Below, one piece after another: positions 6,039-60,395 of a stretch of 64,000 bases of DNA. The first letter of the stretch is position 1; each line of letters begins with the position of its first letter. This DNA comes from a virus (Duplodnaviria > Heunggongvirae > Uroviricota > Caudoviricetes), in IMG/VR virus record IMGVR_UViG_3300045007_000064, positions 60,236 through 124,235 of that record, one strand, 5' to 3'. A model generated the notes under the pieces. That model ran no database searches. It was not told the origin of the DNA and saw only the letters and a program-made list of their open reading frames with translations. The position numbers and the translations under genes are program-made.

Positions 6039-8070
6039 TGCCCTTGTCCTCTCGGGTCCATAGTCGAGTGTTTCCCATAGCTACAAACTCTGCCTGGGTT
6101 GTTCCCATGTAGGCGTTCTCGATGTCGGTGCCGTAGCTCCGCTCGAAGAACGCGATGGTATCTTCAGTATAGCTGGTTGTGCCCGTCTGATGAACTCGCT
6201 TGGCCTCCCAGCGGAATCGCAGCTCCTTGCCGTTGTCCGTGATCGTCAGTAGGCTGTAAGCGCCCCATCCCTGTTCCGGCGTGTTGGTAACGGTGATCGC
6301 GCCGTTGGCGATGTCCCAGCCGGTAGAGCCATCCCCGGTCCAACTGTTGCGGTTGAACCCCGAGATATTCAGGGACGGAATGCCCTTGAAGCGGTACTGA
6401 GTTCCGGTGCGTGTACCGGAGTCCGCCTGAAGGGAATGCGAGTCTCCTCCGATAATGACCATCTTCTTCTTTAGAGCGGGTCGAGCATCGATGAAGTTCT
6501 CTAGCTCCGTAGTCTCCGAGTTGAATGAGGCCCAACGACCGTTACCGTTGTTCATGGCTGTCCACGAGCACCACCACACAACCAGAGCTACGTCTGAGGA
6601 GTCGTTCGCGGCCTGTAGAGCGTCCTTGAATGCCTGCTTCTGGGCAGCACCTAGGAATGTCCTAGGCTCCGCCACAGCGTCCGGGTCGTCCTTGTTGGTC
6701 CAGTTGTCGGTCTGGATGAACATGACGCGTCCGACCTGCCACATGCGCCCCGCAGAGTCATTCGAGAGGTAGTCGGGAACCGCACCCGAGAATGTCCGCC
6801 ACTGCGTGTTGGTCGCAGGGTCGGTGTAGCCCATGTTCAGAGGGGACGCCGATGCACCCGCATCGAGGATGATGCGGTCGTGATTGTCCCACGTCCAATG
6901 GAAAGGAATGCGGTCGAGCATGTACTGGAAGTTCGATGCCGTGAGACTAGAATTGACCGCTGTGCGCCATGCCGTGTCGGTGGTAGGGTCGGCGTAGTGG
7001 AGGTCACCCATGTGGCTGATGAATTCAGGATTCTTGTCAGCCATTGCACGGAACACGGGATTATTGGACGCCGTGAACTGACAGGAGCCACCAATAGCGA
7101 TGAAGGAGGAGGGGGTGCCTGCCGCCTTCTTGGTCTTCGCACGGACGATGTTCACGTCCGTCTGGAGAACGCCGTCAACTTCGAACTTGACCGTGTAAAC
7201 CGTATCAACTGTCAGCCCCGTGAATGCCGCGTTACCCCAAGATGTGGTCGCATTCACCGTCATAGTGGTACGCTGAAGCTCCGTGGTTCCGGCTGCGTCA
7301 TATAGCACCGCTACAACGCTGGAGCCACCAAGTCGTGCCGCGCCCACCGTGAGAGCGGTAGTACCGGCGTGAGTGACCGCGTGTCCACCGATCCGACCCG
7401 TAGACACCGGCTGGTTTGCGGTGCCAATGGCGTAGAGGAATGCGCTGGAGTTGGAGGCGTGGCTGTTGGTGAATGTTCCAGTGGTGTCGCCCACAGCTCC
7501 CGCCGTAGGCATGGGCTTCTCGGCAAGGACGATAGCGTTGGGGTTAGCGTCTCCGGATGTGTTGTGCGCTTCAAAAACGAGGCTGAATCCGTTGTTGATG
7601 GTAGGCGCATTGTCAATCGCATTGGTACGCTCCATCGCGATGTACATTGCCGTGTAATCATTTGCGGGGGTAGTAATACTCGGTGCGGTGGTAGAAAAGG
7701 CTCCACCAGATGCCGCACGGGTACCGATAGCACCGACGACAGGAGTCGCAGAGGAGTTCCATCCTGAGATGGTGATAGGAACTACTCGCCATCCGTCTGA
7801 TCCGCTACGAGTCAGAGTATAAGTCGTATCCCCGGCCTCGAATGTCTTTGTAAAGGCGGTCAGTTTACCCGTACCGGTAGCCGGAGCATTCATGATCCGG
7901 GTCCACGGCGAGGGCATTGTCCAGTTGGAGGATGCCGTGTCAGCCGCCGCAACGATGACCAGGATGAGGTCACCCACCTTCGAGGAGGCATGCGGAGTAA
8001 CGGTCAGGGTACCGGCTGAGGCCTGACCGACTGCCCCGAGAAGCGTACCGGCTGAATAAGAAAGTGCCAT
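6010..8070 (-). CDS. minor tail protein with a C-terminal PhoD-like metallophosphatase domain
   Basis: The Thr/Ala/Gly-rich N-terminal half resembles tail fibre shafts. The C-terminal half carries metallophosphatase motifs GDLHYAD and WDNHD. Confidence 0.55.
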   Translation of the reverse strand: MALSYSAGTLLGAVGQASAGTLTVTPHASSKVGDLILVIVAAADTASSNWTMPSPWTRIMNAPATGTGKLTAFTKTFEAGDTTYTLTRSGSDGWRVVPITISGWNSSATPVVGAIGTRAASGGAFSTTAPSITTPANDYTAMYIAMERTNAIDNAPTINNGFSLVFEAHNTSGDANPNAIVLAEKPMPTAGAVGDTTGTFTNSHASNSSAFLYAIGTANQPVSTGRIGGHAVTHAGTTALTVGAARLGGSSVVAVLYDAAGTTELQRTTMTVNATTSWGNAAFTGLTVDTVYTVKFEVDGVLQTDVNIVRAKTKKAAGTPSSFIAIGGSCQFTASNNPVFRAMADKNPEFISHMGDLHYADPTTDTAWRTAVNSSLTASNFQYMLDRIPFHWTWDNHDRIILDAGASASPLNMGYTDPATNTQWRTFSGAVPDYLSNDSAGRMWQVGRVMFIQTDNWTNKDDPDAVAEPRTFLGAAQKQAFKDALQAANDSSDVALVVWWCSWTAMNNGNGRWASFNSETTELENFIDARPALKKKMVIIGGDSHSLQADSGTRTGTQYRFKGIPSLNISGFNRNSWTGDGSTGWDIANGAITVTNTPEQGWGAYSLLTITDNGKELRFRWEAKRVHQTGTTSYTEDTIAFFERSYGTDIENAYMGTTQAEFVAMGNTRLWTREDKGSAYTPGTVA

Positions 8071-34829: not shown

Positions 34830-34907
34830 CGCCCCAGGCAGGATTCGAACCCGCATTTTCATCCAGTTACGATTCTCGGAGGTAGAAGCTCCGGTCGGTA
34901 CTGAGGC
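34830..34907 (-). pseudogene. tRNA-like element with an Arg(TCT)-like anticodon hairpin and aberrant architecture
   Basis: Intact 7-bp acceptor stem, T-arm GCGGG-TTCGAAT-CCTGC and hairpin CGGAG-CTTCTAC-CTCCG, but no D-arm and a 22-nt insert before the T-arm. Confidence 0.3.
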
Positions 34908-35617: not shown

Positions 35618-35693
35618 TGGTAGGGTGTGTGGGACTCGAACCCACGCTCGTCAGATTATGAGTCTGGTGCCTTTACCAGCTTGGCTAACACCC
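35618..35693 (-). tRNA. tRNA-Met or tRNA-Ile2 (anticodon CAT), CCA encoded
   Basis: Anticodon loop CTCATAA and T-arm GTGGG-TTCGAGT-CCCAC. Confidence 0.6.
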
Positions 35694-35694
35694 C

Positions 35695-35769
35695 GTCGCT
35701 CGGGTGGGGCACGATCCCACCTACACTCCTTATGAGGGAGGGCCGGAACCATCTCCGGTCTACCGAGCG
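35695..35769 (-). tRNA. tRNA with anticodon CAT and a non-canonical T-loop (ATCGTGC)
   Basis: Acceptor CGCTCGG / CCGAGCG, anticodon loop CTCATAA, A in place of T54. Confidence 0.4.
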
Positions 35770-35809
35770 TCTGCCCCGAAGGGCTATTCAGTTGTTCTAG
35801 TTTAGCACA

Positions 35810-36526
35810 TCACCACCAGGACTGCCCAGCCTTGCGGCGCGGGGTGATGTTCTCACGGTCGAAGGAATCCTCCCAGAACTCCTCTCCCGAGTTGAACTGC
35901 TTGGCGACTTCCTTCAGCGTGTCGCGGGCGATTGCACGCTTAGCGGCGTTGTATCCCTGAGGGGAGCAGCAGGAGCAGCGGTACTTGTAGACGTTGCGGT
36001 CTGCGCCGTACCAGTCTGCTTCCATGTAGCAGGGGTTGGCGTTGCTCCAACGGCTCACCATGAGCGGCTTCTCATCGATGGTGCAGTGATCGGGCACGGT
36101 GTACGCGAGGTAGCGCTCCTGCTTCGGGCGGCGGTAGGTGCCACCCTCCACGAGGGCGCTGTCCGGGTAACCGTGAGCGCGGAGCCACATGGCCTCGGAG
36201 CGGACCTTCGCGTAGTCGCGGGAGCGTGCCACGGAGTAGTCGCGGTTCCAACGCCAGTAGCGAATCTCCTCACCGGATTCCGAGCGCTTGGGGATCGAGA
36301 GTCCCTTGTCGGTGACCCAGGCCCACGAGTACATGGTTTCCGGCTTGGCGAGGAGGTCTCCCACGGTGTGGAAGTACGGAACCTCTTCGAGAACGGTCTT
36401 GCCGTCCTCATCCTTTACATCACGGGTGTACCAGACCTCTTCGCCCAGGCGAGAGTGGTCGTGGTGCTCCACACCGTGATCGTTGACCTTCACCCAGTAG
36501 GGTCGGGTCTTGTCAGTGCGAGACAT
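35810..36526 (-). CDS. hypothetical protein
   Basis: Long ORF rich in Trp, Tyr, Arg and His. Confidence 0.55.
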   Translation of the reverse strand: MSRTDKTRPYWVKVNDHGVEHHDHSRLGEEVWYTRDVKDEDGKTVLEEVPYFHTVGDLLAKPETMYSWAWVTDKGLSIPKRSESGEEIRYWRWNRDYSVARSRDYAKVRSEAMWLRAHGYPDSALVEGGTYRRPKQERYLAYTVPDHCTIDEKPLMVSRWSNANPCYMEADWYGADRNVYKYRCSCCSPQGYNAAKRAIARDTLKEVAKQFNSGEEFWEDSFDRENITPRRKAGQSWW

Positions 36527-36737
36527 TGTGTTCCTATCCGGAACACAGGTGCTAGGCCTTTCCTAGCTCTGGTCCTGTGTTCCTAACACCTGAACAGCGT
36601 TGGGCTGCTCATAGTGACTAGGAACGCGGTGTTGTCGAATTCGTTGCTCATGGGTCCAGTGTAGCACACCTTCCGGGATAACGCAAACGGAGCTTGATCC
36701 TATTCGGGTTAGGATCAAGCTCCGTTGATCTTACAGG

Positions 36738-37964
36738 TCAGCCCTTGACGCAGAGGATCGTCTGAAGGTGCGCGACCTTCTCGACCAGGTTGCTCTGAGC
36801 CTCGACCACCGCGTGTAGGTCCTTGTAGGCGTGAGAGATTTCGTCAATCACACCCGCGTCCTTGCGCGACTCGATGCCCTTCATGGTCTCAGCCACGTCC
36901 GCCACCGTGAAGCGGCGCTTGGCCTCACCACGGCTCATCTTCCGACCGGCACCGTGAGATGCGGAGGTCAGAGACGCCTCGTTACCGAGACCACGGACGA
37001 TGTACGAGCCGGTTGCCATCGATCCGGGGATCAACGCCAGCTCGCCCTTCTTCGCGGAGATTGCGCCCTTACGGGTCACGATCATGTCCACCGGCTTGCC
37101 ATCCACGAGGTGAGTCTCCTCCGCCACGTAGTTGTGGTGGCAGTTGATTTCGTCCTCGAAGCGCACCTTGGAGATGACGCGAGCCAGCTCACGCTTCACG
37201 AGGGACATCATCACCGTACGGCTGGTCGCCGCGTAGTTCTGCGCCCACATGAGGTCGTGCCGGTACTCCAGCATCTCCGGGGTGTCCTTCAGGAAGACCG
37301 CCAGCTCCTTGATCGGAAGGTCCTGGTTGTGATCCAGGGTCTTCGCGATGGAGATGTGGCGCTCTGCCAGCTCCTTGCCGATGTTCCGCGAACCGGAATG
37401 CAGCGTGATCCAGATGTTGTCATCCTCGTCCGTGCACAGTTCGATGAAGTGGTTACCTCCACCGAGGGTACCGAGCTGCTTACCGGCACGCTCCTCCAAC
37501 TTGTCCGCACCCGGGGCGCGGAGAGAGTCGAAGCCGTTCTTCAGCTTGGTGACCTCGGAGTTCAGGCCGTTACCGCCGATGTCTCGGAGGTCCTTCGAGG
37601 ACAGCGCCTCACCGTGGGAGTTGAAGCCGACCGGCACCGCGCGCTCGATGGCGCTACGGAGCTTGTGGAGGATGCCGTCAACGTCCTCACGAGTGAGGTT
37701 CGTCTTCACGGCGTTCACACCACAGCCGATGTCCACACCCACAGCGGACGGACAGATCGCGCTCGTGGAGCCGATCACCGTACCGATGGTCGCGCCAGCG
37801 CCCAGGTGAACGTCGGGCATCACGCGCAGCTCGTCAACCCACGGCAGCGCGCCGACGTTGCGAATCTGCTGAACCGCCTGCGGTTCGATTTCCCACTCGT
37901 TCGCCCACATGAGTGTGCGAGTCTTTGCACCCGGCAATTCAACCGGGAAGTTGTTGTCAGTCAT
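36738..37964 (-). CDS. rtcB: RtcB-family RNA 3'-phosphate ligase
   Basis: VMPDVHLGAGATIG, part of the metal-binding histidine signature, in a 408-aa protein. Confidence 0.9.
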   Translation of the reverse strand: MTDNNFPVELPGAKTRTLMWANEWEIEPQAVQQIRNVGALPWVDELRVMPDVHLGAGATIGTVIGSTSAICPSAVGVDIGCGVNAVKTNLTREDVDGILHKLRSAIERAVPVGFNSHGEALSSKDLRDIGGNGLNSEVTKLKNGFDSLRAPGADKLEERAGKQLGTLGGGNHFIELCTDEDDNIWITLHSGSRNIGKELAERHISIAKTLDHNQDLPIKELAVFLKDTPEMLEYRHDLMWAQNYAATSRTVMMSLVKRELARVISKVRFEDEINCHHNYVAEETHLVDGKPVDMIVTRKGAISAKKGELALIPGSMATGSYIVRGLGNEASLTSASHGAGRKMSRGEAKRRFTVADVAETMKGIESRKDAGVIDEISHAYKDLHAVVEAQSNLVEKVAHLQTILCVKG

Positions 37965-38254
37965 TTCGTGTCCTCGTAGTGGAAGAAGATTTCGGTGTCG
38001 GGTCGAAGGTAAATCTTGTACCCGTTTTGGTTGATCAGAATCGTCCCGTTCTGGTGAACGTAGATCGACTCAATGGTGTAGACATGCGGCTTGGTGATCC
38101 AGGCCTTAGCGGTATCATCCCAGTGTCGGGAAGGCTTAGCCTTCCCCCGGCGACTACCGTAGACGATGGACTCTACCGTACGCCCTAGGTCGCTGATCCG
38201 TAGTTCGGATGCTGGAACTGGAATCTTCGAGACGGTCATGCGTTGTACGTCCAC
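37961..38254 (-). CDS. hypothetical protein
   Basis: ATGA coupling to the rtcB start. Confidence 0.45.
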   Translation of the reverse strand: MDVQRMTVSKIPVPASELRISDLGRTVESIVYGSRRGKAKPSRHWDDTAKAWITKPHVYTIESIYVHQNGTILINQNGYKIYLRPDTEIFFHYEDTK

Positions 38255-38697
38255 AGCTCGATGTCTGCTCGATACCGCAGGGCAACTTCGGTGAGGACGA
38301 CCTCGACCATACGTTGGTCCAGACCGCCGATACCGCTGCCGATCCGAGGCAGGGCCAGAGTCTCGATGCCCACCTCATCACACTTCTGGAGGGCCGCAGC
38401 CACACCGCCGATGAGCAGGTCGTAGGAGGCGTTCGCCCCGGGAAGCTCCTGCGAGGCGATGTTCAGAACGAGCGCAGGCTGTCCCCACGGGGTCTTCAGG
38501 CTCCAGGAGAACACGCCTCCCGGCTCCAGGGTGCGGTTGCTGCACGCCTCCCGGTAGGCCTCGAACATCTCAGGGAACCGCTTGCTGAACTGCGCAGCGA
38601 TCCCCGCGCCCATAACGCCCACGGTGTTGACGCCGTGGCCGATGGCTCGCGAAGTCGTGGTGAAGATGTCGCCGTAGCGGTGGATAAGCTTTGTCAT
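38236..38697 (-). CDS. macro-domain protein (ADP-ribose or ADP-ribose-1''-phosphate processing)
   Basis: GDIF...GVNTVGVMGAGIAAQF and LPRIGSGIGG are macro-domain signatures. Confidence 0.7.
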   Translation of the reverse strand: MTKLIHRYGDIFTTTSRAIGHGVNTVGVMGAGIAAQFSKRFPEMFEAYREACSNRTLEPGGVFSWSLKTPWGQPALVLNIASQELPGANASYDLLIGGVAAALQKCDEVGIETLALPRIGSGIGGLDQRMVEVVLTEVALRYRADIELWTYNA

Positions 38698-38736
38698 GGT
38701 CTCAGCCTAACAGGTGTCGCCTGCTGTGTCAAGGCG

Positions 38737-39012
38737 TCAGTACGCCGTGTTGTCCTCGTGACCGCAGGAACCCTTGTGATTGACGGGCTTCTTGCATGGT
38801 TTCCATGTCCAGTCACTCGCATCCCATGCGTCCACGTCCCGGTAGGCCTGACCGCACTCATAGCTGTCGCTGTGGGTGTGGTAGAACCCGGCTCGACTGT
38901 TCGGGAGCTTGCCCAGCTCGGGTCCCGTCAGCTTCTTGATTCCTTGCTGCACTTCCGATAGCTCGTGGAGTAGTCTCTCCTCTTCGCGCTGAAGATCGCT
39001 GAGGGCGCTCAT
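38737..39012 (-). CDS. hypothetical cysteine/histidine-containing protein
   Basis: Start taken at MSALSDL. Confidence 0.4.
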   Translation of the reverse strand: MSALSDLQREEERLLHELSEVQQGIKKLTGPELGKLPNSRAGFYHTHSDSYECGQAYRDVDAWDASDWTWKPCKKPVNHKGSCGHEDNTAY

Positions 39013-39386
39013 TCGCTGTCTCCCTTGCTCAGGTGGTCGTAGATGACGCTGATCTTGACCCACTCGGGGGCCTCGGCGTTCGCGGCGGCGAGCATCTGCT
39101 TGCGCGCGGGAGGGTTGGACGTGTGGATGGTCAGCTCCTCAGGCCAGACCTCGTGCTCGATCATCCAGTTCAGCACCTTCATGCCGGTGTCGTCACCGCC
39201 GAGGTCGTGATCCAGGCTGACCTCCTCGATCCCGCCACCAAGAGGGCGTCCACGCTTGTCGTTGTTTCGACGCCACGTCTCCAGCCAGTCGATGGCCTCA
39301 GCGCTTGTCCGCGCGTGAACGTGCCATGGAATGCTATTGGAGTCCCACGGCATGGGACGCTCGTCGTCTACCCAAATCTTCATCAC
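39009..39386 (-). CDS. hypothetical protein, WVDDERP paralogue 1
   Basis: N-terminus MMKIWVDDERPMP...VSLDHDLG. Confidence 0.5.
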   Translation of the reverse strand: MMKIWVDDERPMPWDSNSIPWHVHARTSAEAIDWLETWRRNNDKRGRPLGGGIEEVSLDHDLGGDDTGMKVLNWMIEHEVWPEELTIHTSNPPARKQMLAAANAEAPEWVKISVIYDHLSKGDSE

Positions 39387-39694
39387 TTACCGTCCTGGTT
39401 GTCGTCGTCTACGAGGATCAGACCCTCCGGCCCTGCTTCCTTGGCGTAGGAGAGAATCTGGTAGCGACCGGTGCCACCGCCCGAGTGGGAGTGAAGTTCA
39501 CGAGGCCAGATGCCACGGCTTTCCATCCACTGGAGAACGTCGAAGCCGGAGTCCCAGCCGATCAGCACGTAGTCCAGCGAGACCACATCGTAGTCATTCT
39601 CCTGGAGCAGGCTGCGCGCATCGTCGGCGGTCTTGGCTACGTCCCAGTTCTCGTCCGGAGCGGGGCGCTCATCGTCTACCCAGAGTTTCTTCAT
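39383..39694 (-). CDS. hypothetical protein, WVDDERP paralogue 2
   Basis: N-terminus MKKLWVDDERPAP...VVSLDYVL; tandem duplicate of the neighbouring gene. Confidence 0.5.
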   Translation of the reverse strand: MKKLWVDDERPAPDENWDVAKTADDARSLLQENDYDVVSLDYVLIGWDSGFDVLQWMESRGIWPRELHSHSGGGTGRYQILSYAKEAGPEGLILVDDDNQDGK

Positions 39695-39744
39695 ACTGCC
39701 AGGGTACACGAGAAAGGCCCCGCTGTCAAGCGAGGCCTTTCCGG

Positions 39745-40818
39745 TCAGCGGTCGTGCTTCAGGAGGTACCGCTGGGAGATTGCCTTCCACGAGGCCCGAG
39801 CACCGTTCGGGAACGTTGCTACCTCGGTGTTCCGCCAGACGACACCCTCGACAGGCCGCTGAGGGTTGATCAGGCTCTTCAGGTTCTCGACCTGAGCCAG
39901 AGCCTCGTCCTGGTCCTTCGGGTAGGGCAGGTCGTGGATCGGCACGGCGATGTCGAGCGCCCACTGTGGCCAGGAGGCACGAGGAAGCTCCTCGCGGTCA
40001 ACCTGGATCGTGAAGAGTCGGAACTGGACTTGCTTGACCTGGAGAGGGTTGCCCTGGATTCCAGGACCAAAAATCTCCCCCTGGAGAGCGATTTCAGCCT
40101 CCACCAGGTAATCCTGAGCGGGGTACCAGTTGGTCATCTTCTCGTGGAGGTCCAGCTCGCGAGCCAGCTTCCACATGGAGTTGTGGCTGGTGTCCTCGAT
40201 GTCCCAGTTGCGCGAGGCCACGCCGTTCTCGTTGTTGGCGTAGAAGACGGTCATTGACGAGCCGTCAATCTTCTCGGTGGCGACCCAGGCATCCGGAGTC
40301 GGCTGAGAGCCGTCGAAGAGCCAGGAGAGGTTCTGCACGCGCTCCTCGTCGGTCTTGCGGAAGATGGACGGGAAGGCACCCTTGGCGCTTCCTGCAAGCT
40401 CGGCGGGGATGGGCGGGTCCCACTTCTCCAGTCCGGGAATGGCGGACGTGATATCCATACCGAGCAGAGCAATGCCCTGAGCCACGGCGAAAGCTTCATC
40501 CTCGAACTGAGCGAAGGGAAGCACGAGGCCCTGGCTGTAGACGCCACGGAGCTTCGCAGTCTTCAGGACGTGGCCCTCCACGCCCTCCTGGTTCTTCCGC
40601 GCTCCACGAGGCGCGAGGAAGGTGAATCGGGGGTCGTCCAGCGGCAGGAACGAGTCGATTTCGAAGTAGACCACAAGGTCTCCAACCTCGAACTCTCCGA
40701 TGCGCACGACGACATCCCAGCCGCGCACACGCGCGACCTCGATGCTGTCGGCTCCCTCGATGGGACGCAGCTCTGTGATTTCCTCGACCGTTGCGAGGGC
40801 GCGTTCTTCTGTAGTCAT
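39745..40818 (-). CDS. ATP-dependent RNA ligase (nucleotidyltransferase KxDG family)
   Basis: Motif I EKIDGSS with the covalent-adenylation lysine, an N-terminal OB-like region, and later ligase motifs. Confidence 0.65.
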   Translation of the reverse strand: MTTEERALATVEEITELRPIEGADSIEVARVRGWDVVVRIGEFEVGDLVVYFEIDSFLPLDDPRFTFLAPRGARKNQEGVEGHVLKTAKLRGVYSQGLVLPFAQFEDEAFAVAQGIALLGMDITSAIPGLEKWDPPIPAELAGSAKGAFPSIFRKTDEERVQNLSWLFDGSQPTPDAWVATEKIDGSSMTVFYANNENGVASRNWDIEDTSHNSMWKLARELDLHEKMTNWYPAQDYLVEAEIALQGEIFGPGIQGNPLQVKQVQFRLFTIQVDREELPRASWPQWALDIAVPIHDLPYPKDQDEALAQVENLKSLINPQRPVEGVVWRNTEVATFPNGARASWKAISQRYLLKHDR

Positions 40819-40872
40819 GAGTCCAGCGTATACGAAAAAAGCCTCGCTGTCAACGCCAGCGAGGCTATGTTC

Positions 40873-40946
40873 TTGGTGGGTCCTGCGGGGATCGAACCCG
40901 CGCTTGAAGGGTAAAAGCCAACAGTGCTCCCGCTACACCAAAGACC
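40873..40946 (-). tRNA. tRNA (anticodon not resolved), CCA encoded
   Basis: Good acceptor stem and T-arm GCGGG-TTCGATC-CCCGC; the anticodon stem is ambiguous. Confidence 0.45.
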
Positions 40947-40947
40947 C

Positions 40948-41019
40948 GCACTCCCACCTGAAATCGAATCAGGACTTCGAGGACCAAAATCTCGCGTGGC
41001 TACCGTTACACTATGGGAG
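40948..41019 (-). tRNA. tRNA-Gln (anticodon TTG)
   Basis: A1-U72 pair, T-arm CCTGA-TTCGATT-TCAGG, anticodon loop TTTTGGT. Confidence 0.5.
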
Positions 41020-41079
41020 TATGTGGAAGCTTTAAGGACTCGAACGTGCGCACGTTTGTCCCACGGTTTTCCAACCTCC

Positions 41080-41150
41080 GCTCCCCAGCCTGGATTCGAA
41101 CCAAGACGAGCAGATTCAGAGTCTGCCATGCTACCGTTACATCACCGGGG
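41080..41150 (-). tRNA. tRNA-Gln (anticodon CTG)
   Basis: U1-A72 pair, anticodon arm GCAGA-CTCTGAA-TCTGC, T-arm CTTGG-TTCGAAT-CCAGG. Confidence 0.7.
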
Positions 41151-41266
41151 AATACGCCTGCCGCATCTACACATACGCTTTGAGGCCGTGACCCAGGCCA
41201 GCAGGACTTCTGTGGAGGTCTCGACTTCGATTTCGCCCCGAAGGATACGCATATCGACTCCACATT

Positions 41267-41337
41267 GCTCCCCAGCCTGGTTACGATCCAAGTCTTCGAT
41301 GTTCAGAGCATCGCGTGCTGCCAGTACACTACCGGGG
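41267..41337 (-). tRNA. tRNA-Gln(CTG)-like paralogue with T-loop ATCGTAA
   Basis: Same acceptor as the preceding gene, anticodon arm CGATG-CTCTGAA-CATCG, A in place of T54. Confidence 0.4.
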
Positions 41338-41346
41338 AATAGATGG

Positions 41347-41466
41347 GCTACATGCCCACCAAGATTGCTGCTACGAGAATGATCAGTCCAAGACCGATGG
41401 TGGCGAGGGTGATCTTCACGTCTGAGGGCGACTTGAACTGGCCCTCTTCTTCTGCGTCGAATGTCA
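41347..41466 (-). CDS. small membrane protein (39 aa)
   Basis: Under 60 aa. AGGA ribosome-binding site, strong GC3 bias, one predicted transmembrane helix; lies between tRNA genes. Confidence 0.35.
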
Positions 41467-41483
41467 TGCTGACATCCTACCAC

Positions 41484-41558
41484 ATGGTGTCCCCGGAGGG
41501 GATCGAACCCTCGACCAAGGTCTTAGGAGGACCTGATTCTGCCACTGAACTACGGAGA
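41484..41558 (-). tRNA. tRNA-Arg (anticodon CCT), CCA encoded
   Basis: Anticodon arm AGGTC-CTCCTAA-GACCT and T-arm CGAGG-GTTCGATC-CCCTC. Confidence 0.75.
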
Positions 41559-41774
41559 CATATGCTGACCTGTAAGCCGGGTTCTGTCGTTGAAGACGCA
41601 CATCTACCTTCGCCACATACCCGCTCATCATCGGGGAATGACACCCTAGAACTGTTTGTGTTGCACCCACGGCCTCACCGCTGCTTCATTAGTCTGTGCT
41701 TAGTGGACGTACCACACGGCTATCATTCGGGTGCCCGGACTTTCCTCAGCTTGCGCCGCGTGCGTCCAGTCAGC

Positions 41775-41847
41775 GTGCCAACACCGGGATTCGAACCCGG
41801 AACCTTCAGCCTCGGAAGCTGCTGCTCTATCCATTGAGCTATGTCGG
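41775..41847 (-). tRNA. tRNA-Arg (anticodon CCG)
   Basis: Anticodon loop TTCCGAG and T-arm CCGGG-TTCGAAT-CCCGG. Confidence 0.6.
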
Positions 41848-41848
41848 C

Positions 41849-41923
41849 GTGGTCTCCCCGGCAAGAATCGAACTTGCATCGCCTGGTTCGTAGCCAGACA
41901 TCGTATCCATTGGAACACGAGGA
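41849..41923 (-). tRNA. tRNA-Arg (anticodon ACG), CCA encoded
   Basis: Anticodon arm TCTGG-CTACGAA-CCAGG. Confidence 0.7.
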
Positions 41924-41973
41924 GTTACCTGCGACTTAAACAGAGCACCGACTTTACGATGTTGCGCCGCATT

Positions 41974-42046
41974 GTACCCCAAGAGGGATTCGAACCCCCG
42001 ACCTCTGCATCCGTAGTGCAGCGCTCTATCCACTGAGCTATTGAGG
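41974..42046 (-). tRNA. tRNA-Arg (anticodon ACG), second copy
   Basis: Anticodon arm CTGCA-CTACGGA-TGCAG and T-arm GGGGG-TTCGAAT-CCCTC. Confidence 0.55.
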
Positions 42047-42047
42047 C

Positions 42048-42120
42048 GCATGGGTGGCAGGATTTGAACCCGCGACACGTCGGGTTGGAGCCGACTGCTC
42101 TGGCCTCTGAGCTACACCCA
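42048..42120 (-). tRNA. tRNA-Trp (anticodon CCA)
   Basis: A1-U72 and G73, anticodon arm GTCGG-CTCCAAC-CCGAC, T-loop TTCAAAT. Confidence 0.7.
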
Positions 42121-42564
42121 TATAGTGGTCGAAGAGCGTCTGAGATATTCAAGCGCTCTGAGAAGACCTGTTTCGTTGTCGCCTAGCATTCCGATCCCAG
42201 TGTTGCAGGGAGCGCAGAGTAGGCCTCGTACACACTTACCGCACGAGTGAGGCCCCGGGCAGCAACTGTGGTCATGGTCCACAACCTTAGCAGGTCTTGC
42301 CTGGCAAGACCAGCACATCCCGTTGAACATGGCAAGGAGTTCCTGCCATCGTTCGACCGAGATACCATGACGAGTATGTGAAGGACCATTCTTCTTGTGA
42401 ATGGCTTGCGCCTTGTCAATGTACTTCTGACGGTTGGCTTGGTAGTGCGACTTTCGATAGGCGCGGTGGCAATCCTTGCACTGGGCAGCGCGTCTGACGT
42501 TCTTCACTCGCCAGCTATAGTTCTCTTCTGGCTGAGTCACGCCACACTTGGTACACTTCTTCAT
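42112..42564 (-). CDS. HNH endonuclease
   Basis: VVDHDHS...CGKCVRGLLCAPCN. AT-rich. A TATAAT box lies 7 nt upstream of the ATG. Its 3' end overlaps the tRNA-Trp gene by a few nt. Confidence 0.7.
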   Translation of the reverse strand: MKKCTKCGVTQPEENYSWRVKNVRRAAQCKDCHRAYRKSHYQANRQKYIDKAQAIHKKNGPSHTRHGISVERWQELLAMFNGMCWSCQARPAKVVDHDHSCCPGPHSCGKCVRGLLCAPCNTGIGMLGDNETGLLRALEYLRRSSTTIWV

Positions 42565-42737
42565 ACTCACATTATAGCACTCCAAAATATTTCGTTTGGA
42601 GACCGCACCCCACCGACGAATCGAACGCCGCACGCAGAGGGTTGGAATCTCTACTGGTACCCAGACCGTGGGATATATGACGACCAACGCACTACAGTCC
42701 AGTTCGCGACCATTGCCGTAGGTGAATTGATCATCCG

Positions 42738-42809
42738 CTCCCCCGCCTGGATTCGAACCAGGGACCTTAGAGTTAACAGCTCTCTGCTCTGCCGCTGAGC
42801 TACAGGGGA
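42738..42809 (-). tRNA. tRNA-Asn (anticodon GTT)
   Basis: Anticodon loop CTGTTAA and T-arm CCTGG-TTCGAAT-CCAGG. Confidence 0.65.
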
Positions 42810-42877
42810 ATACGCTACACATTCGCTAATCAACATGCTTTCGCACCGTTAGCCTAAAAGGACAGTAGCCTTCCTCG

Positions 42878-42950
42878 CTCCCCCGCCTGGTGACGATCCA
42901 AGCTCACGCGGTTAACAGCCGCGGGTTTTACCAACATAAACTACAGGGGA
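42878..42950 (-). tRNA. tRNA-Asn(GTT)-like paralogue with T-loop ATCGTCA
   Basis: Anticodon arm CGCGG-CTGTTAA-CCGCG, A in place of T54. Confidence 0.4.
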
Positions 42951-43021: not shown

Positions 43022-43501
43022 TTAGAGCCAGTCTGCCTCTGGGTGGCTCCACCTGTAGGCTTCCTCGAAAGTCGGCTTGTAAGGCTGGAATGCCAGGGTC
43101 ATGCCGCTCTGTTCAAGCGACTTGTCACCCTTCTTGTTGTTGCAGGGCTGGCAAGCGGCAATCGAGTTCTCCCACGATGCGGGGTTACCCTTGGACTTGG
43201 GCTTGATGTGGTCCACCGTGGTAGCCTTGCCGCCACAGTAGGCACAGACGAAGCCGTCTCGCCTCAGGACGCCACGCTTAGAGAACGGGATGACGCCTGT
43301 GCGGTTGTACTTCCACTTGGCGAAGACGTACCGGACCAGCTCGACAGCCGTAGGCCGCTCGTAGGGGCCGAACATCTCACCAGCAATGCTCTTCAGAATA
43401 CGAGCCTTGCCCTGGTGGACCATCTTGATTGCGTGGGTCAGACTGACGCGGTTCAGCGCTTCCTTACCACCTAGGTTGTAAACGATAACTGTTGCGCTCA
43501 T
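43022..43501 (-). CDS. HNH endonuclease
   Basis: CAYCGG...TVDHIKP...CQPCNNKKG. Start taken at MSATVIV. Confidence 0.7.
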   Translation of the reverse strand: MSATVIVYNLGGKEALNRVSLTHAIKMVHQGKARILKSIAGEMFGPYERPTAVELVRYVFAKWKYNRTGVIPFSKRGVLRRDGFVCAYCGGKATTVDHIKPKSKGNPASWENSIAACQPCNNKKGDKSLEQSGMTLAFQPYKPTFEEAYRWSHPEADWL

Positions 43502-43574
43502 GAGTCTGACCTCCAATCACATTCTATCACAGCGTCATGAGTTTTAGGGGGCAGTAGGTTGCCAGCCCGTCAAT

Positions 43575-50071: not shown

Positions 50072-50081
50072 ATAAAGGAGA

Positions 50082-50152
50082 CGAGAAGTCAGGACTCGAA
50101 CCCGATCCAACGCCCATAACGGCGCTGTGCTGACCCTTACACTACATCTCTC
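50082..50152 (-). pseudogene. tRNA-like element (imperfect)
   Basis: T-arm TCGGG-TTCGAGT-CCTGA and D-arm are present, but the acceptor stem has mismatches and the loop that should hold the anticodon is 6 nt long. Confidence 0.3.
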
Positions 50153-50234
50153 AGGAGGCTAGTGAGACCTACCTGCTCCTGCACAGCGTCCAGCCCGATC
50201 AGGTCACTATCCCAATTTGACTTTCTGCTTTGCG

Positions 50235-52236: not shown

Positions 52237-52303
52237 AATCTCCGTCATATCCTGGACGGCCAGGCCCGACTGTCGGGCTAGAGCTAGAAATACTCTAGGT
52301 TCG

Positions 52304-52377
52304 TTGCGGGAGTTGGAGTCGAACCAACGTCGTCAGGTTATGAGCCTGCACCGGAACCACCTCCGGGTTACCCCGCA
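52304..52377 (-). tRNA. tRNA with anticodon CAT (third copy; Met, fMet or Ile2)
   Basis: Anticodon loop CTCATAA and T-arm GTTGG-TTCGACT-CCAAC. Confidence 0.5.
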
Positions 52378-59669: not shown

Positions 59670-60395
59670 ATGACCTCAACCAACTGGATCGACCTTCTCA
59701 ACGAGGCGAAGCAGAATGGTGGCCCCCAGGACTTCGGTCCCATTCCGGCCAACGACTACCACCTGAAGGTTCTTGAGGCGGAGACCCGCCAGACCCAGGC
59801 TGGCAAGACGAAGTACACCATCAAGGCGCAGGTCCAGACCGGACCCCACGCCTCTCGACTCATCTGGGACGACCTGATCGTTTCTCCTGAGTCCGCTGGA
59901 GCCATGGGCTTCTTCTTCCGCAAGATGAAGGCTCTCGGCCTGGACGAGGCGTTCTTCGCCACGGCCCCGACCGACGACCAGATCACTTCTGCCCTGAAGG
60001 ACCGTGAGTTCCTTGGCAAGGTAATCATCGACAACTACGGCGGCAAGAGCCGTAACAAGATCGACGGTTACAAGCCGTTCACCGCTGGCGCTGGTGGTGC
60101 GTTCCCGCCGTCCCCGCAGGCCGCAGCCACCCCCGCTGCTCCGTTCCCGCAGGCTGCACCCGCTCCTGCGGCTGCTCCTGCCCCGCAGGCAGCCCCGGCT
60201 CCTCAGGCAGCACCCGCGCCTGCTCCGGCCCCGCAGCAGCCTGCACAGGCCCCGTGGGACCAGGGTGGCGCACCGGCAGCACCCGCGGCTCCGGCAGCGC
60301 CCGCTCCGGGTGGAAACCCGTGGGACCAGGGTGCCGCTCCCGCACCGGCAGCTCCGGCTCCCGGCGCACCGCAGTTCCCCCAGCCCCCGTTCTAA
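59670..60395 (+). CDS. DUF669-like ssDNA-binding protein with a Pro/Ala-rich C-terminal tail
   Basis: Sits after the AAA_24 gene as in many phages; low-complexity PAPAA repeats with WDQG motifs. Confidence 0.5.
   Translation: MTSTNWIDLLNEAKQNGGPQDFGPIPANDYHLKVLEAETRQTQAGKTKYTIKAQVQTGPHASRLIWDDLIVSPESAGAMGFFFRKMKALGLDEAFFATAPTDDQITSALKDREFLGKVIIDNYGGKSRNKIDGYKPFTAGAGGAFPPSPQAAATPAAPFPQAAPAPAAAPAPQAAPAPQAAPAPAPAPQQPAQAPWDQGGAPAAPAAPAAPAPGGNPWDQGAAPAPAAPAPGAPQFPQPPF

Follow-up and report, generated by a model that had tools for sequence, protein, structure and literature searches.

Here, we analysed a 64,000-nt stretch of DNA from a virus (Caudoviricetes; positions 60,236 to 124,235 of IMG/VR record IMGVR_UViG_3300045007_000064), to which we refer as the window. 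Exactly three of its 44 tRNA genes, coding for a tRNA-Gln(CUG), a tRNA-Asn(GUU) and a tRNA with the anticodon CAU, carry T-loops that begin with ATCGT. As T54 is changed to A and A58 to T in all three, the pair between positions 54 and 58 is swapped from U54·A58 to A54·U58 and not merely lost. Teaching on tRNAs presents U54 and A58 as universally conserved, and the exception recognised in the literature consulted is the A54·A58 of eukaryotic tRNAs. The three variants are tRNAs: they lack the U54·A58 pair and fall below the Rfam score threshold, and they have the other testable features of a tRNA. They form part of a recurrent, structure-preserving class and are not a case of gene decay. Judged from their sequences, the three genes very probably encode functional, compensated tRNAs, and as the best explanation as a whole we tentatively favour working tRNAs whose swap would confer evasion of nucleases.

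Results

The window has a G+C content of 57.9%. ARAGORN called 43 tRNA genes, every one on the minus strand, and the CAU variant missed by the program brings the number of tRNA-like genes on this strand to 44. All T-loops were read in the reverse complement; an initial annotation of the same DNA had read the plus strand. The BLAST neighbours of the window are the Microbacterium phages Big4, Zooman, A3Wally, Pumpernickel, Cece and one further relative, all of about 190 kb, with tRNA arrays collinear with that of the window. In total, seven relatives were compared, which together with the window gives eight Microbacterium phage arrays with about 333 tRNA genes. They include Magritte, a 133-kb phage from a cluster other than that of the window phage, whose array was examined as a 30-kb stretch.

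The T-loops ATCGTAA (Gln), ATCGTCA (Asn) and ATCGTGC (CAU) exist as first annotated, with coordinates correct to within 1 nt. An alignment of the T-arms across the window set these three genes apart from the 41 remaining ones, whose T-loops all read TTC[G/A]A. The initial annotation had named A54 as the change; this holds for all three genes, but the accompanying exchange of A58 for T had been overlooked. Among the 44 genes, we found none with a single change at position 54 or 58 alone. Position 60, where T is usual, is occupied by A in the Gln and Asn variants and by C in the CAU variant, and none of the three combines a U54·A58 reverse-Hoogsteen pair with a pyrimidine at position 60. The Rfam tRNA model RF00005 matched none of them, neither at its gathering threshold of 29 bits nor at E ≤ 1 in a search over 17 kb, and ARAGORN called only the Gln and Asn variants.

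Paired paralogues, as named in the initial annotation, exist for Gln and Asn, each with a canonical copy in the window (Table 1). The canonical tRNA-Gln(CUG) shares its acceptor stem, T-stem and anticodon loop with its variant, which has a variable loop of 4 nt and agrees with the canonical copy also in U1:A72 and G73. In the case of tRNA-Asn(GUU), variant and canonical gene have the same acceptor stem. As the anticodon loops are identical within each pair (CTCTGAA for Gln, CTGTTAA for Asn), the paired copies differ at the elbow and not at the anticodon loop. In contrast, no canonical twin of the same function adjoins the variant CAU gene, which is separated by one base from the next tRNA. Its closest paralogue is the CAU gene with the initiator-like acceptor stem, and an unusual, long D-stem of 5 bp is common to both. 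At the place of the adjoining canonical CAU gene ('GGGGTGT' type), Pumpernickel has a tRNA-Ile(UAU). Three CAU genes are kept in all relatives, with the 'TGCGGGG' type being initiator-like; on this pattern, the variant CAU gene is probably of the elongator-Met type and likely the only such gene of the phage, and would therefore not truly be a member of a pair.

Are these genes decaying, or is their structure maintained? Parsing of the arms revealed G18, G19, U55, C56, the G53:C61 pair and U33 in all three variants. Acceptor and T-stems are as in the canonical partners and the anticodon stems are intact, giving a cloverleaf whose acceptor, anticodon and T-stems measure 7, 5 and 5 bp and whose 7-nt anticodon loop includes U33. 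The minimum-free-energy fold of both the Gln variant and the CAU gene is a cloverleaf, in the latter with four arms and −31.9 kcal/mol. A covarying family of 13 A54/U58 Gln, Asn and Lys genes, five from Microbacterium phages and eight from IMG/VR, has 99.6% of its stem cells paired and double compensatory changes in 16 of 21 pairs. Neither value was reached in any of 500 shuffles, and slid alignments were only 32–54% paired. Together with the parsing, this bears out the original description of the acceptor and anticodon arms as intact. The elbow is likewise kept in A54/U58 tRNAs at large, with G53:C61 in 325 of 327 and GG in the D-loop in 96%. Signs of a tRNA pseudogene, such as uncompensated mismatches, core loss or missing conservation, were not found in the three variants.

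The ATCGT variant is also present in four of the relatives (Big4, Zooman, Magritte and Pumpernickel), and swapped genes make up nine of the tRNA genes in the eight arrays. Random degeneration, named beforehand as the observation that would count against function, was looked for at the orthologous loci of the seven relatives and is absent; the genes there are canonical and intact or else have the ATCGT loop of the variants. The notion of a fixed, specific subset of tRNAs did not survive the comparison, as the carriers in the relatives are Gln, Lys(CUU), Ser(GCU) or Met-type genes and the swap was seen in about 20 amino-acid specificities in IMG/VR phages. Big4, Zooman and Magritte have a variant tRNA-Gln whose D-arm (GTTTATGTTGGTAAAAC) and T-arm recur in the variant tRNA-Asn of the window. 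The Magritte copy encodes CCA and has no second Gln(CUG) gene beside it in the examined stretch of the array. The variant Lys(CUU) gene of Zooman has orthologue-like acceptor and anticodon stems, with D-loop, variable loop and T-arm all altered together. Three phages retain both a variant and a canonical copy, which agree fully in their anticodon loops. Over 99 nt, the region of the variant CAU gene agrees at 99% of positions with a part of Pumpernickel that carries no annotation, as compared to 76–80% in the flanks, which suggests that the gene was exchanged recently between phages. This 99-nt stretch (window 35695–35793; about 7629–7727 in the Pumpernickel sequence L002, host M. paraoxydans) consists of the CAU tRNA and 24 nt upstream with a GCCC-UUCG-GGGC hairpin.

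In the same group of phages, A54 also occurs with A58 kept and a purine at position 60 (ATCGATA, ATCGAAA, ATCGAAG), namely in the Lys(UUU) gene of Cece and in four genes of Magritte. Such loops, which resemble the eukaryotic-initiator type, are plausible intermediates towards the swap. Among these loci are Cece Lys(UUU) at L004 26436–26508 and a Glu and two Gly genes of Magritte at L007 11893–11964, 13842–13917 and 14003–14076. We also considered whether the variant marks tRNAs whose amino acid is modified on the tRNA (Gln, Asn and (f)Met; GatCAB, formylase). This idea was rejected because of the Lys and Ser carriers, the range of specificities in IMG/VR and a CAU gene that is not initiator-like.

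To look beyond Microbacterium phages, IMG/VR was scanned with the exact patterns of two variant T-arms and then with a generic D-arm joined to GGATCGT, which yielded at least hundreds of tRNA genes among the matches listed. Within a set of 1,693 unique phage tRNAs not picked by the search patterns themselves, the bases at positions 54/58 were T/A in 1571 cases, A/T in 89 (5.3%), A/A in 20 and T/non-A in three, and T/T did not occur. This covariation excludes chance (Fisher p = 6e-124). Position 60 follows the swap: U60 is present in 85% of the canonical tRNAs, but in only one of the 89 swapped ones (p = 3e-66), and the A54/A58 class of the same sample has a purine there as well. At 13 loci hit purely by chance matches, four of 151 tRNAs (2.6%) were swapped. 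The commonest carrier was Asn(GUU), in a sample whose isoacceptor preferences are biased by the search patterns. Swapped genes encode CCA as often as canonical genes.

Pairing is not a general rule of the class. In arrays with at least eight tRNAs, only 15 of 202 swapped genes had a canonical partner with the same anticodon and the other 187 were the sole gene for their anticodon; the paired layout therefore belongs to this phage group. Variant/canonical pairs amounted to 7.4% compared to 3.7% for canonical duplicates, with small numbers behind both values. Phage arrays also hold further departures from U54-U55-C56, such as C55, G55 and U56 with A19, with up to seven kinds per array. Where the T-loop has U56, the D-loop has GA in place of GG at a ratio of 28:1, such that A19:U56 replaces G19:C56 (IMG/VR loci L008–L405), and loops with G54/G58 recur in the phage sample. 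Phage T5 has one U56/A19 covariant, a tRNA-Ile(GAU) (L406 8211–8287), and no A54/U58 tRNA. Conservation in relatives, compensatory stem changes, the intact elbow and the covariation of positions 54, 58 and 60 thus uphold the early suspicion of a recurrent, non-random class.

The T-loop is not confined to viruses. A scan of 185,579 species genomes with the generic pattern gave matches of which, among those listed, most are lone tRNA genes recurring in lineages. Bacteroidales and a 7.9-Mb Blastocatellia contig carry the swap in Gly(CCC), Kiritimatiellae, Lentisphaerae and Verrucomicrobia in His(GUG) and Met(CAU), bacteria of the candidate phyla radiation in Lys and Hadesarchaea in Thr(UGU). Two cellular loci were examined and sit among ordinary chromosomal genes, one next to genes for arginine decarboxylase, a sigma factor and a protein kinase, the other next to those for succinyl-CoA ligase and enoyl-ACP reductase. 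Though indirectly, these lone genes make a good case that an A54·U58 T-loop would be compatible with ordinary tRNA processing and translation. Other cellular matches listed lie in dense tRNA arrays or are identical across phyla, which suggests mobile elements. One identical or near-identical A54/U58 CAU gene (anticodon loop CTCATAT, T-loop ATCGTGG) occurs in Segatella copri, Phocaeicola massiliensis, Bacteroidaceae and Spirochaetales (L200, L216, L226, L194, L199); its spread across phyla points to a mobile element or phage and not to a core gene.

Between the tRNA blocks of the window lies a block of RNA-repair genes, and a miniature RNase P-like RNA is encoded further along the array (Table 1). 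This RNA spans all model positions 1–367 within 221 nt. It has the class A P1–P4 core with the motifs GAGGAAAGUCCGGGC and ACAGAACCCGGCUUAC and the P4 pseudoknot; a full specificity domain (P7–P14) and P18 are absent and its score remains below the 100-bit gathering score. About 140 model positions of the specificity domain are reduced to about 58 nt. The RNA is 93% conserved in five phages, in which its 48 modelled pairs are 99.6% paired; eight are compensatory, including three that belong to the catalytic P4 pseudoknot. A comparison with 50,697 phage records gave matches in just four other M. foliorum phages, the window's own genome not being one of them; the RNA lacks an annotation in each of these public records. 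Our literature searches found no description of a phage-encoded RNase P RNA. Presence and absence of this RNA do not track those of the swapped tRNAs, and we therefore claim no functional link between the two. A search of IMG/VR for more such miniature RNAs, based on closely spaced core motifs, gave two matches, both due to chance. An unrelated viral contig of 59.8 kb (IMGVR_UViG_3300027902_000011) carries an RNase P RNA of 280 nt (L060 976–1255, minus strand). This RNA exceeds the gathering score of Rfam with 170.9 bits and lies directly upstream of three tRNA genes, one of them an A54/U58 tRNA-Lys. Virus-borne RNase P RNA is thus not confined to Microbacterium phages.

Two endonuclease genes are interleaved with the tRNAs, and a conserved open reading frame of 238 amino acids adjoining the CAU gene had no match in Pfam or PHROGs. 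Two further tRNA-like stretches deserve mention. The first (34830–34907) lacks a D-arm in the normal place, has about 22 nt between anticodon arm and T-arm and was not called by ARAGORN; A3Wally and a near-identical relative have a normal tRNA-Arg(UCU) in this region. At the place of the second (50080–50153), the relatives have a Tyr-like or unassignable gene. The A3Wally record MZ150783.1 names its tRNAs as if the anticodon were the codon, e.g. 'tRNA-Leu(ctg)' for Gln(ctg) and 'tRNA-Gly(ggc)' for Ala(ggc), a systematic annotation error.

Table 1 Swapped tRNA genes, their canonical counterparts and neighbouring features in the window.
Feature	Position	Strand	Description and basis
Variant tRNA-Gln(CUG)	41267–41338	−	T-arm CTTGG-ATCGTAA-CCAGG (A54, U58, A60); ARAGORN; below Rfam threshold; family A2 member
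Canonical tRNA-Gln(CUG) paralogue	41080–41151	−	T-loop TTCGAAT; ARAGORN, Rfam
Variant tRNA-Asn(GUU)	42877–42950	−	T-arm CTTGG-ATCGTCA-CCAGG; ARAGORN
Canonical tRNA-Asn(GUU) paralogue	42737–42809	−	T-loop TTCGAAT; ARAGORN, Rfam
Variant CAU tRNA	35695–35769	−	T-arm GTGGG-ATCGTGC-CCCAC; T-arm hairpin and fold; missed by ARAGORN and Rfam
Canonical CAU tRNA adjoining the variant CAU gene, probably tRNA-Ile2	35618–35694	−	ARAGORN
CAU tRNA with initiator-like acceptor	52303–52377	−	TGCGGGG…CCCGCA; canonical T-loop; ARAGORN, Rfam
Miniature RNase P-like RNA	41557–41777	−	Between tRNA-Arg(CCU) and tRNA-Arg(CCG); Rfam RF00010, 71.7 bits, E 5e-22
RNA-repair gene block between tRNA blocks	36738–40818	−	Pfam, PHROGs
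RtcB ligase	36738–37964	−	Pfam
Macro domain protein	38236–38697	−	PHROG match 'phosphatase'; Pfam, PHROGs
Two cREC_REC (cyclic-phosphate-processing receiver) proteins	39009–39386, 39383–39964	−	Pfam
RNA ligase with PHA02142 OB domain	39745–40818	−	Pfam, PHROGs
Endonuclease VII	42112–42822		
HNH endonuclease	43022–43516		
tRNA-like stretch, Arg(UCU)-type anticodon arm	34830–34907	−	Weak Rfam tRNA match (29.6 bits); good acceptor stem, canonical T-arm
Aberrant tRNA-like gene	50080–50153	−	ARAGORN 'tRNA-His(atg)', odd anticodon position; Rfam 36 bits

Discussion

How could a tRNA tolerate the exchange of two bases that are regarded as invariant? The outer C56:G19 face of the elbow is used by RNase P, the ribosome and T-boxes. 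In the canonical elbow, C61-A58-G18-R57-C56:G19 form one stack and U54·A58 lies on G53:C61 (PMC7912444); the 54·58 pair is thus interior to the elbow. In the swapped tRNAs, A54·U58 would take the place of the tertiary pair, which, with position 60 no longer U, would result in an internally compensated T-loop. As G53:C61, U55, C56, R57 and G18/G19 are otherwise kept, the L-shape and the outer G19:C56 face, on which RNase P and the ribosome stack, should stay unchanged. What changes is the identity of buried bases. Since U54 and A58 are gone, m5U54 and m1A58 are impossible, and with the U54-U55-C56 motif lost as well, a swapped tRNA would serve poorly as a target of proteins that recognise or cleave at U54/U55. 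The selected benefit would then be a tRNA that, for some codons, survives T-loop-directed tRNases of hosts or competitors, a T-loop counterpart of the anticodon-loop mutations by which anticodon nucleases are evaded. We infer the geometry of the A54·U58 pair as well as expression, charging and nuclease resistance of these tRNAs from sequence.

Nucleases of the required kind have been described. The CRISPR-associated Schlafen nuclease 'Cash' cuts the T-loop at UUC, 5′ of U55, acted on 28 E. coli tRNAs and is abolished in its cutting by single mutations of U54 or U55; its authors left the targeting of phage tRNAs as an open question in 2026 (PMC13462974). According to a secondary account, CdiA-CT(E479) cleaves between T and Ψ of the T-loop (Nikolakakis 2012, via PMC9086364). 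Both are putative antagonists acting at U54/U55 and not relatives of the feature described here. Cash was studied in Chloroflexi and E. coli and, as far as that account goes, CdiA-CT(E479) in Burkholderia, hence not in Actinobacteria. The strategy itself has a precedent in phage tRNAs that escape cleavage by anticodon nucleases through mutated anticodon loops (van den Berg et al. 2023, PMC10264068; also T5 tRNAs against PARIS and retron Eco7). These keep decoding while nucleotides of the nuclease site are altered, often beside or in place of host-like versions. In the variants of the window, the change lies in the T-loop and the anticodon loops of the paired copies are free of such substitutions; the study of van den Berg et al. 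makes no mention of the T-loop (PMC10264068).

By this analogy, nuclease evasion is a possible, if doubtful, reason for the swap. The loss of UUC by several routes in other arrays (C55, G55, U56/A19) was counted in its favour, and the RNA-repair block fits a phage under RNA-damaging attack. Several points weigh against it. Only three of 44 tRNAs are swapped; translation would still fail under attack by a broad T-loop nuclease, and a benefit thus needs an isoacceptor-selective enzyme. We know of no T-loop nuclease in Microbacterium. A swapped trans Watson-Crick/Hoogsteen pair is not strictly isosteric. Close relatives carry the variant patchily, with zero to three swapped genes per array and an isoacceptor that differs by phage, and it is found in ordinary tRNA genes of cells, for which counter-defence by phages offers no explanation. 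Non-UUC T-loops are, moreover, not significantly clustered in particular arrays (22 observed, about 21 simulated), in a test confounded by how the arrays were found.

Much of this is what one would expect from the main rival, a near-neutral compensated polymorphism, which we regard as somewhat unlikely. Here, A54·U58 with a non-U at position 60 would be a second workable T-loop without specific advantage, reached by two mutations via a viable A54·A58 and drifting into the weakly constrained, fast-evolving tRNA genes of phages and occasionally into those of cells. The intermediate indeed exists, in about 1% of the phage sample as well as in Cece Lys(UUU) and the four Magritte genes, and the patchiness, the cellular carriers and the lack of clustering all agree with drift. 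Other tertiary covariation such as A19:U56 fits relaxed constraint with structural compensation. Drift accounts less well for one D-arm and T-arm module common to the Gln genes of three phages and the Asn gene of the window, or for a CAU gene whose near-identity between divergent flanks looks like recent spread. It also leaves aside that pairs of variant and canonical genes with identical anticodon loops are retained in three phages and are, on small numbers, twice as frequent as canonical duplicates.

An advantage of another kind would be independence from modification. A54 cannot become m5U and U58 cannot become m1A, and the two modified positions change together; the swap could thus free a tRNA from the host enzymes for m5U54 (TrmA/TrmFO), m1A58 (TrmI) and perhaps Ψ55 (TruB). 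PMC7912444 reviews the enzymes that modify the T-loop along with their conserved targets. The phage would gain if these enzymes or S-adenosylmethionine were limiting or altered in infection, or if the host discriminated tRNAs by modification. We consider this improbable, since most tRNAs of the same phage keep U54 and A58, the choice of Gln, Asn and Met in the window phage is left unexplained and limiting T-loop modification in infected cells lacks support. The same data fit nuclease evasion equally.

The initial annotation had offered decoys for anticodon nucleases, non-translating tRNAs or substrates of the repair enzymes as candidate functions, to which one may add cofactors of these enzymes and substrates or cofactors of the RNase P-like RNA. 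The nearby RtcB, RNA ligase and miniature RNase P-like RNA, the canonical partners of Gln and Asn and the scores below the thresholds of tRNA models could be taken to point this way. A decoy with an anticodon loop identical to that of its partner, however, gives no differential protection. The parts that bear tRNA identity and the EF-Tu-binding T-stems are conserved, and the anticodon of the variant is served by no other gene in Magritte and in most phage arrays. The lone tRNA genes on bacterial chromosomes with the same T-loop weigh against decoys and against non-translating RNAs or repair substrates alike. As for the RNase P-like RNA, it is present in A3Wally and its near-identical relative, which have no swapped tRNA, and absent from Pumpernickel and Magritte, which do. 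We therefore regard non-translating roles as very improbable. That the variants are decaying pseudogene copies of duplicated tRNA genes, as might be thought from Gln and Asn variants being second copies that deviate at 'invariant' positions and score below the Rfam threshold, can practically be dismissed in view of a double swap without single-site departures, perfect stems with compensatory evolution, retention across phage clusters and three-way covariation (p 1e-66 to 1e-124).

Among known tRNAs, the closest parallel is the eukaryotic initiator tRNA-Met and the metazoan tRNA-Ala(AGC), functional tRNAs with A54·A58 (Basavappa & Sigler 1991; Westhof et al. 2020, PMC7566577). Like our variants, they have A in place of U/T at position 54, and they combine it with a purine instead of a pyrimidine at position 60 and with coordinated core changes (15/48, D-loop length) (PMC7566577). 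They keep A58 (m1A58) in a longer purine-purine pair, however, whereas the window variants have U58 and hence a swap; the initiator combination of A54, A58 and A60 is found in none of the three. The unusual pairs of Westhof et al. were not seen in bacterial or archaeal tRNAs (PMC7566577), while the A54·U58 variant is bacterial, archaeal and phage-borne. Metazoan mitochondrial tRNAs are likewise functional without canonical T54/A58, but there the whole network between D-loop and T-loop is lost, in contrast to one precise swap with G18G19, U55, C56 and G53:C61 strictly kept. An in vivo selection by Zagryadskaya, Doyon and Steinberg in Nucleic Acids Research (NAR) in 2003 is said to have found 54-58 to be the most constrained element of the D- and T-loops, replaceable by G54-A58 and G54-G58, with A54-U58 reportedly not among the recovered solutions. 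In our phage sample, A54/U58 is by far the commonest natural alternative. A literature search across 8 million full texts for A54-U58 wording found no prior description.

Taken to its furthest extent, the favoured reading of compensated, nuclease-evading tRNAs would make A54·U58 with a non-U60 a distinct new T-loop architecture, adopted repeatedly by phages and some cells to hide U54-U55 from T-loop tRNases while the tRNA stays fully functional. In the lineage of the window phage, it would then be part of a largely self-sufficient tRNA supply, comprising duplicate isodecoders with different elbows, an RNA-repair block and its own miniature RNase P RNA. In this full form, we rate the proposal as speculative and rather unlikely.

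For structural biology, the swap with its covarying position 60 is a natural alternative T-loop, present in a few percent of the phage tRNAs sampled as well as in certain genes of bacteria and archaea. With its Gln and Asn pairs, one genome provides matched, putatively resistant and sensitive isodecoders and thereby bears on the question of whether phage tRNAs escape Schlafen nucleases. Finally, the variants score below standard tRNA thresholds and one of them is unannotated in a published relative, and the tRNA repertoires of phages are therefore under-counted.

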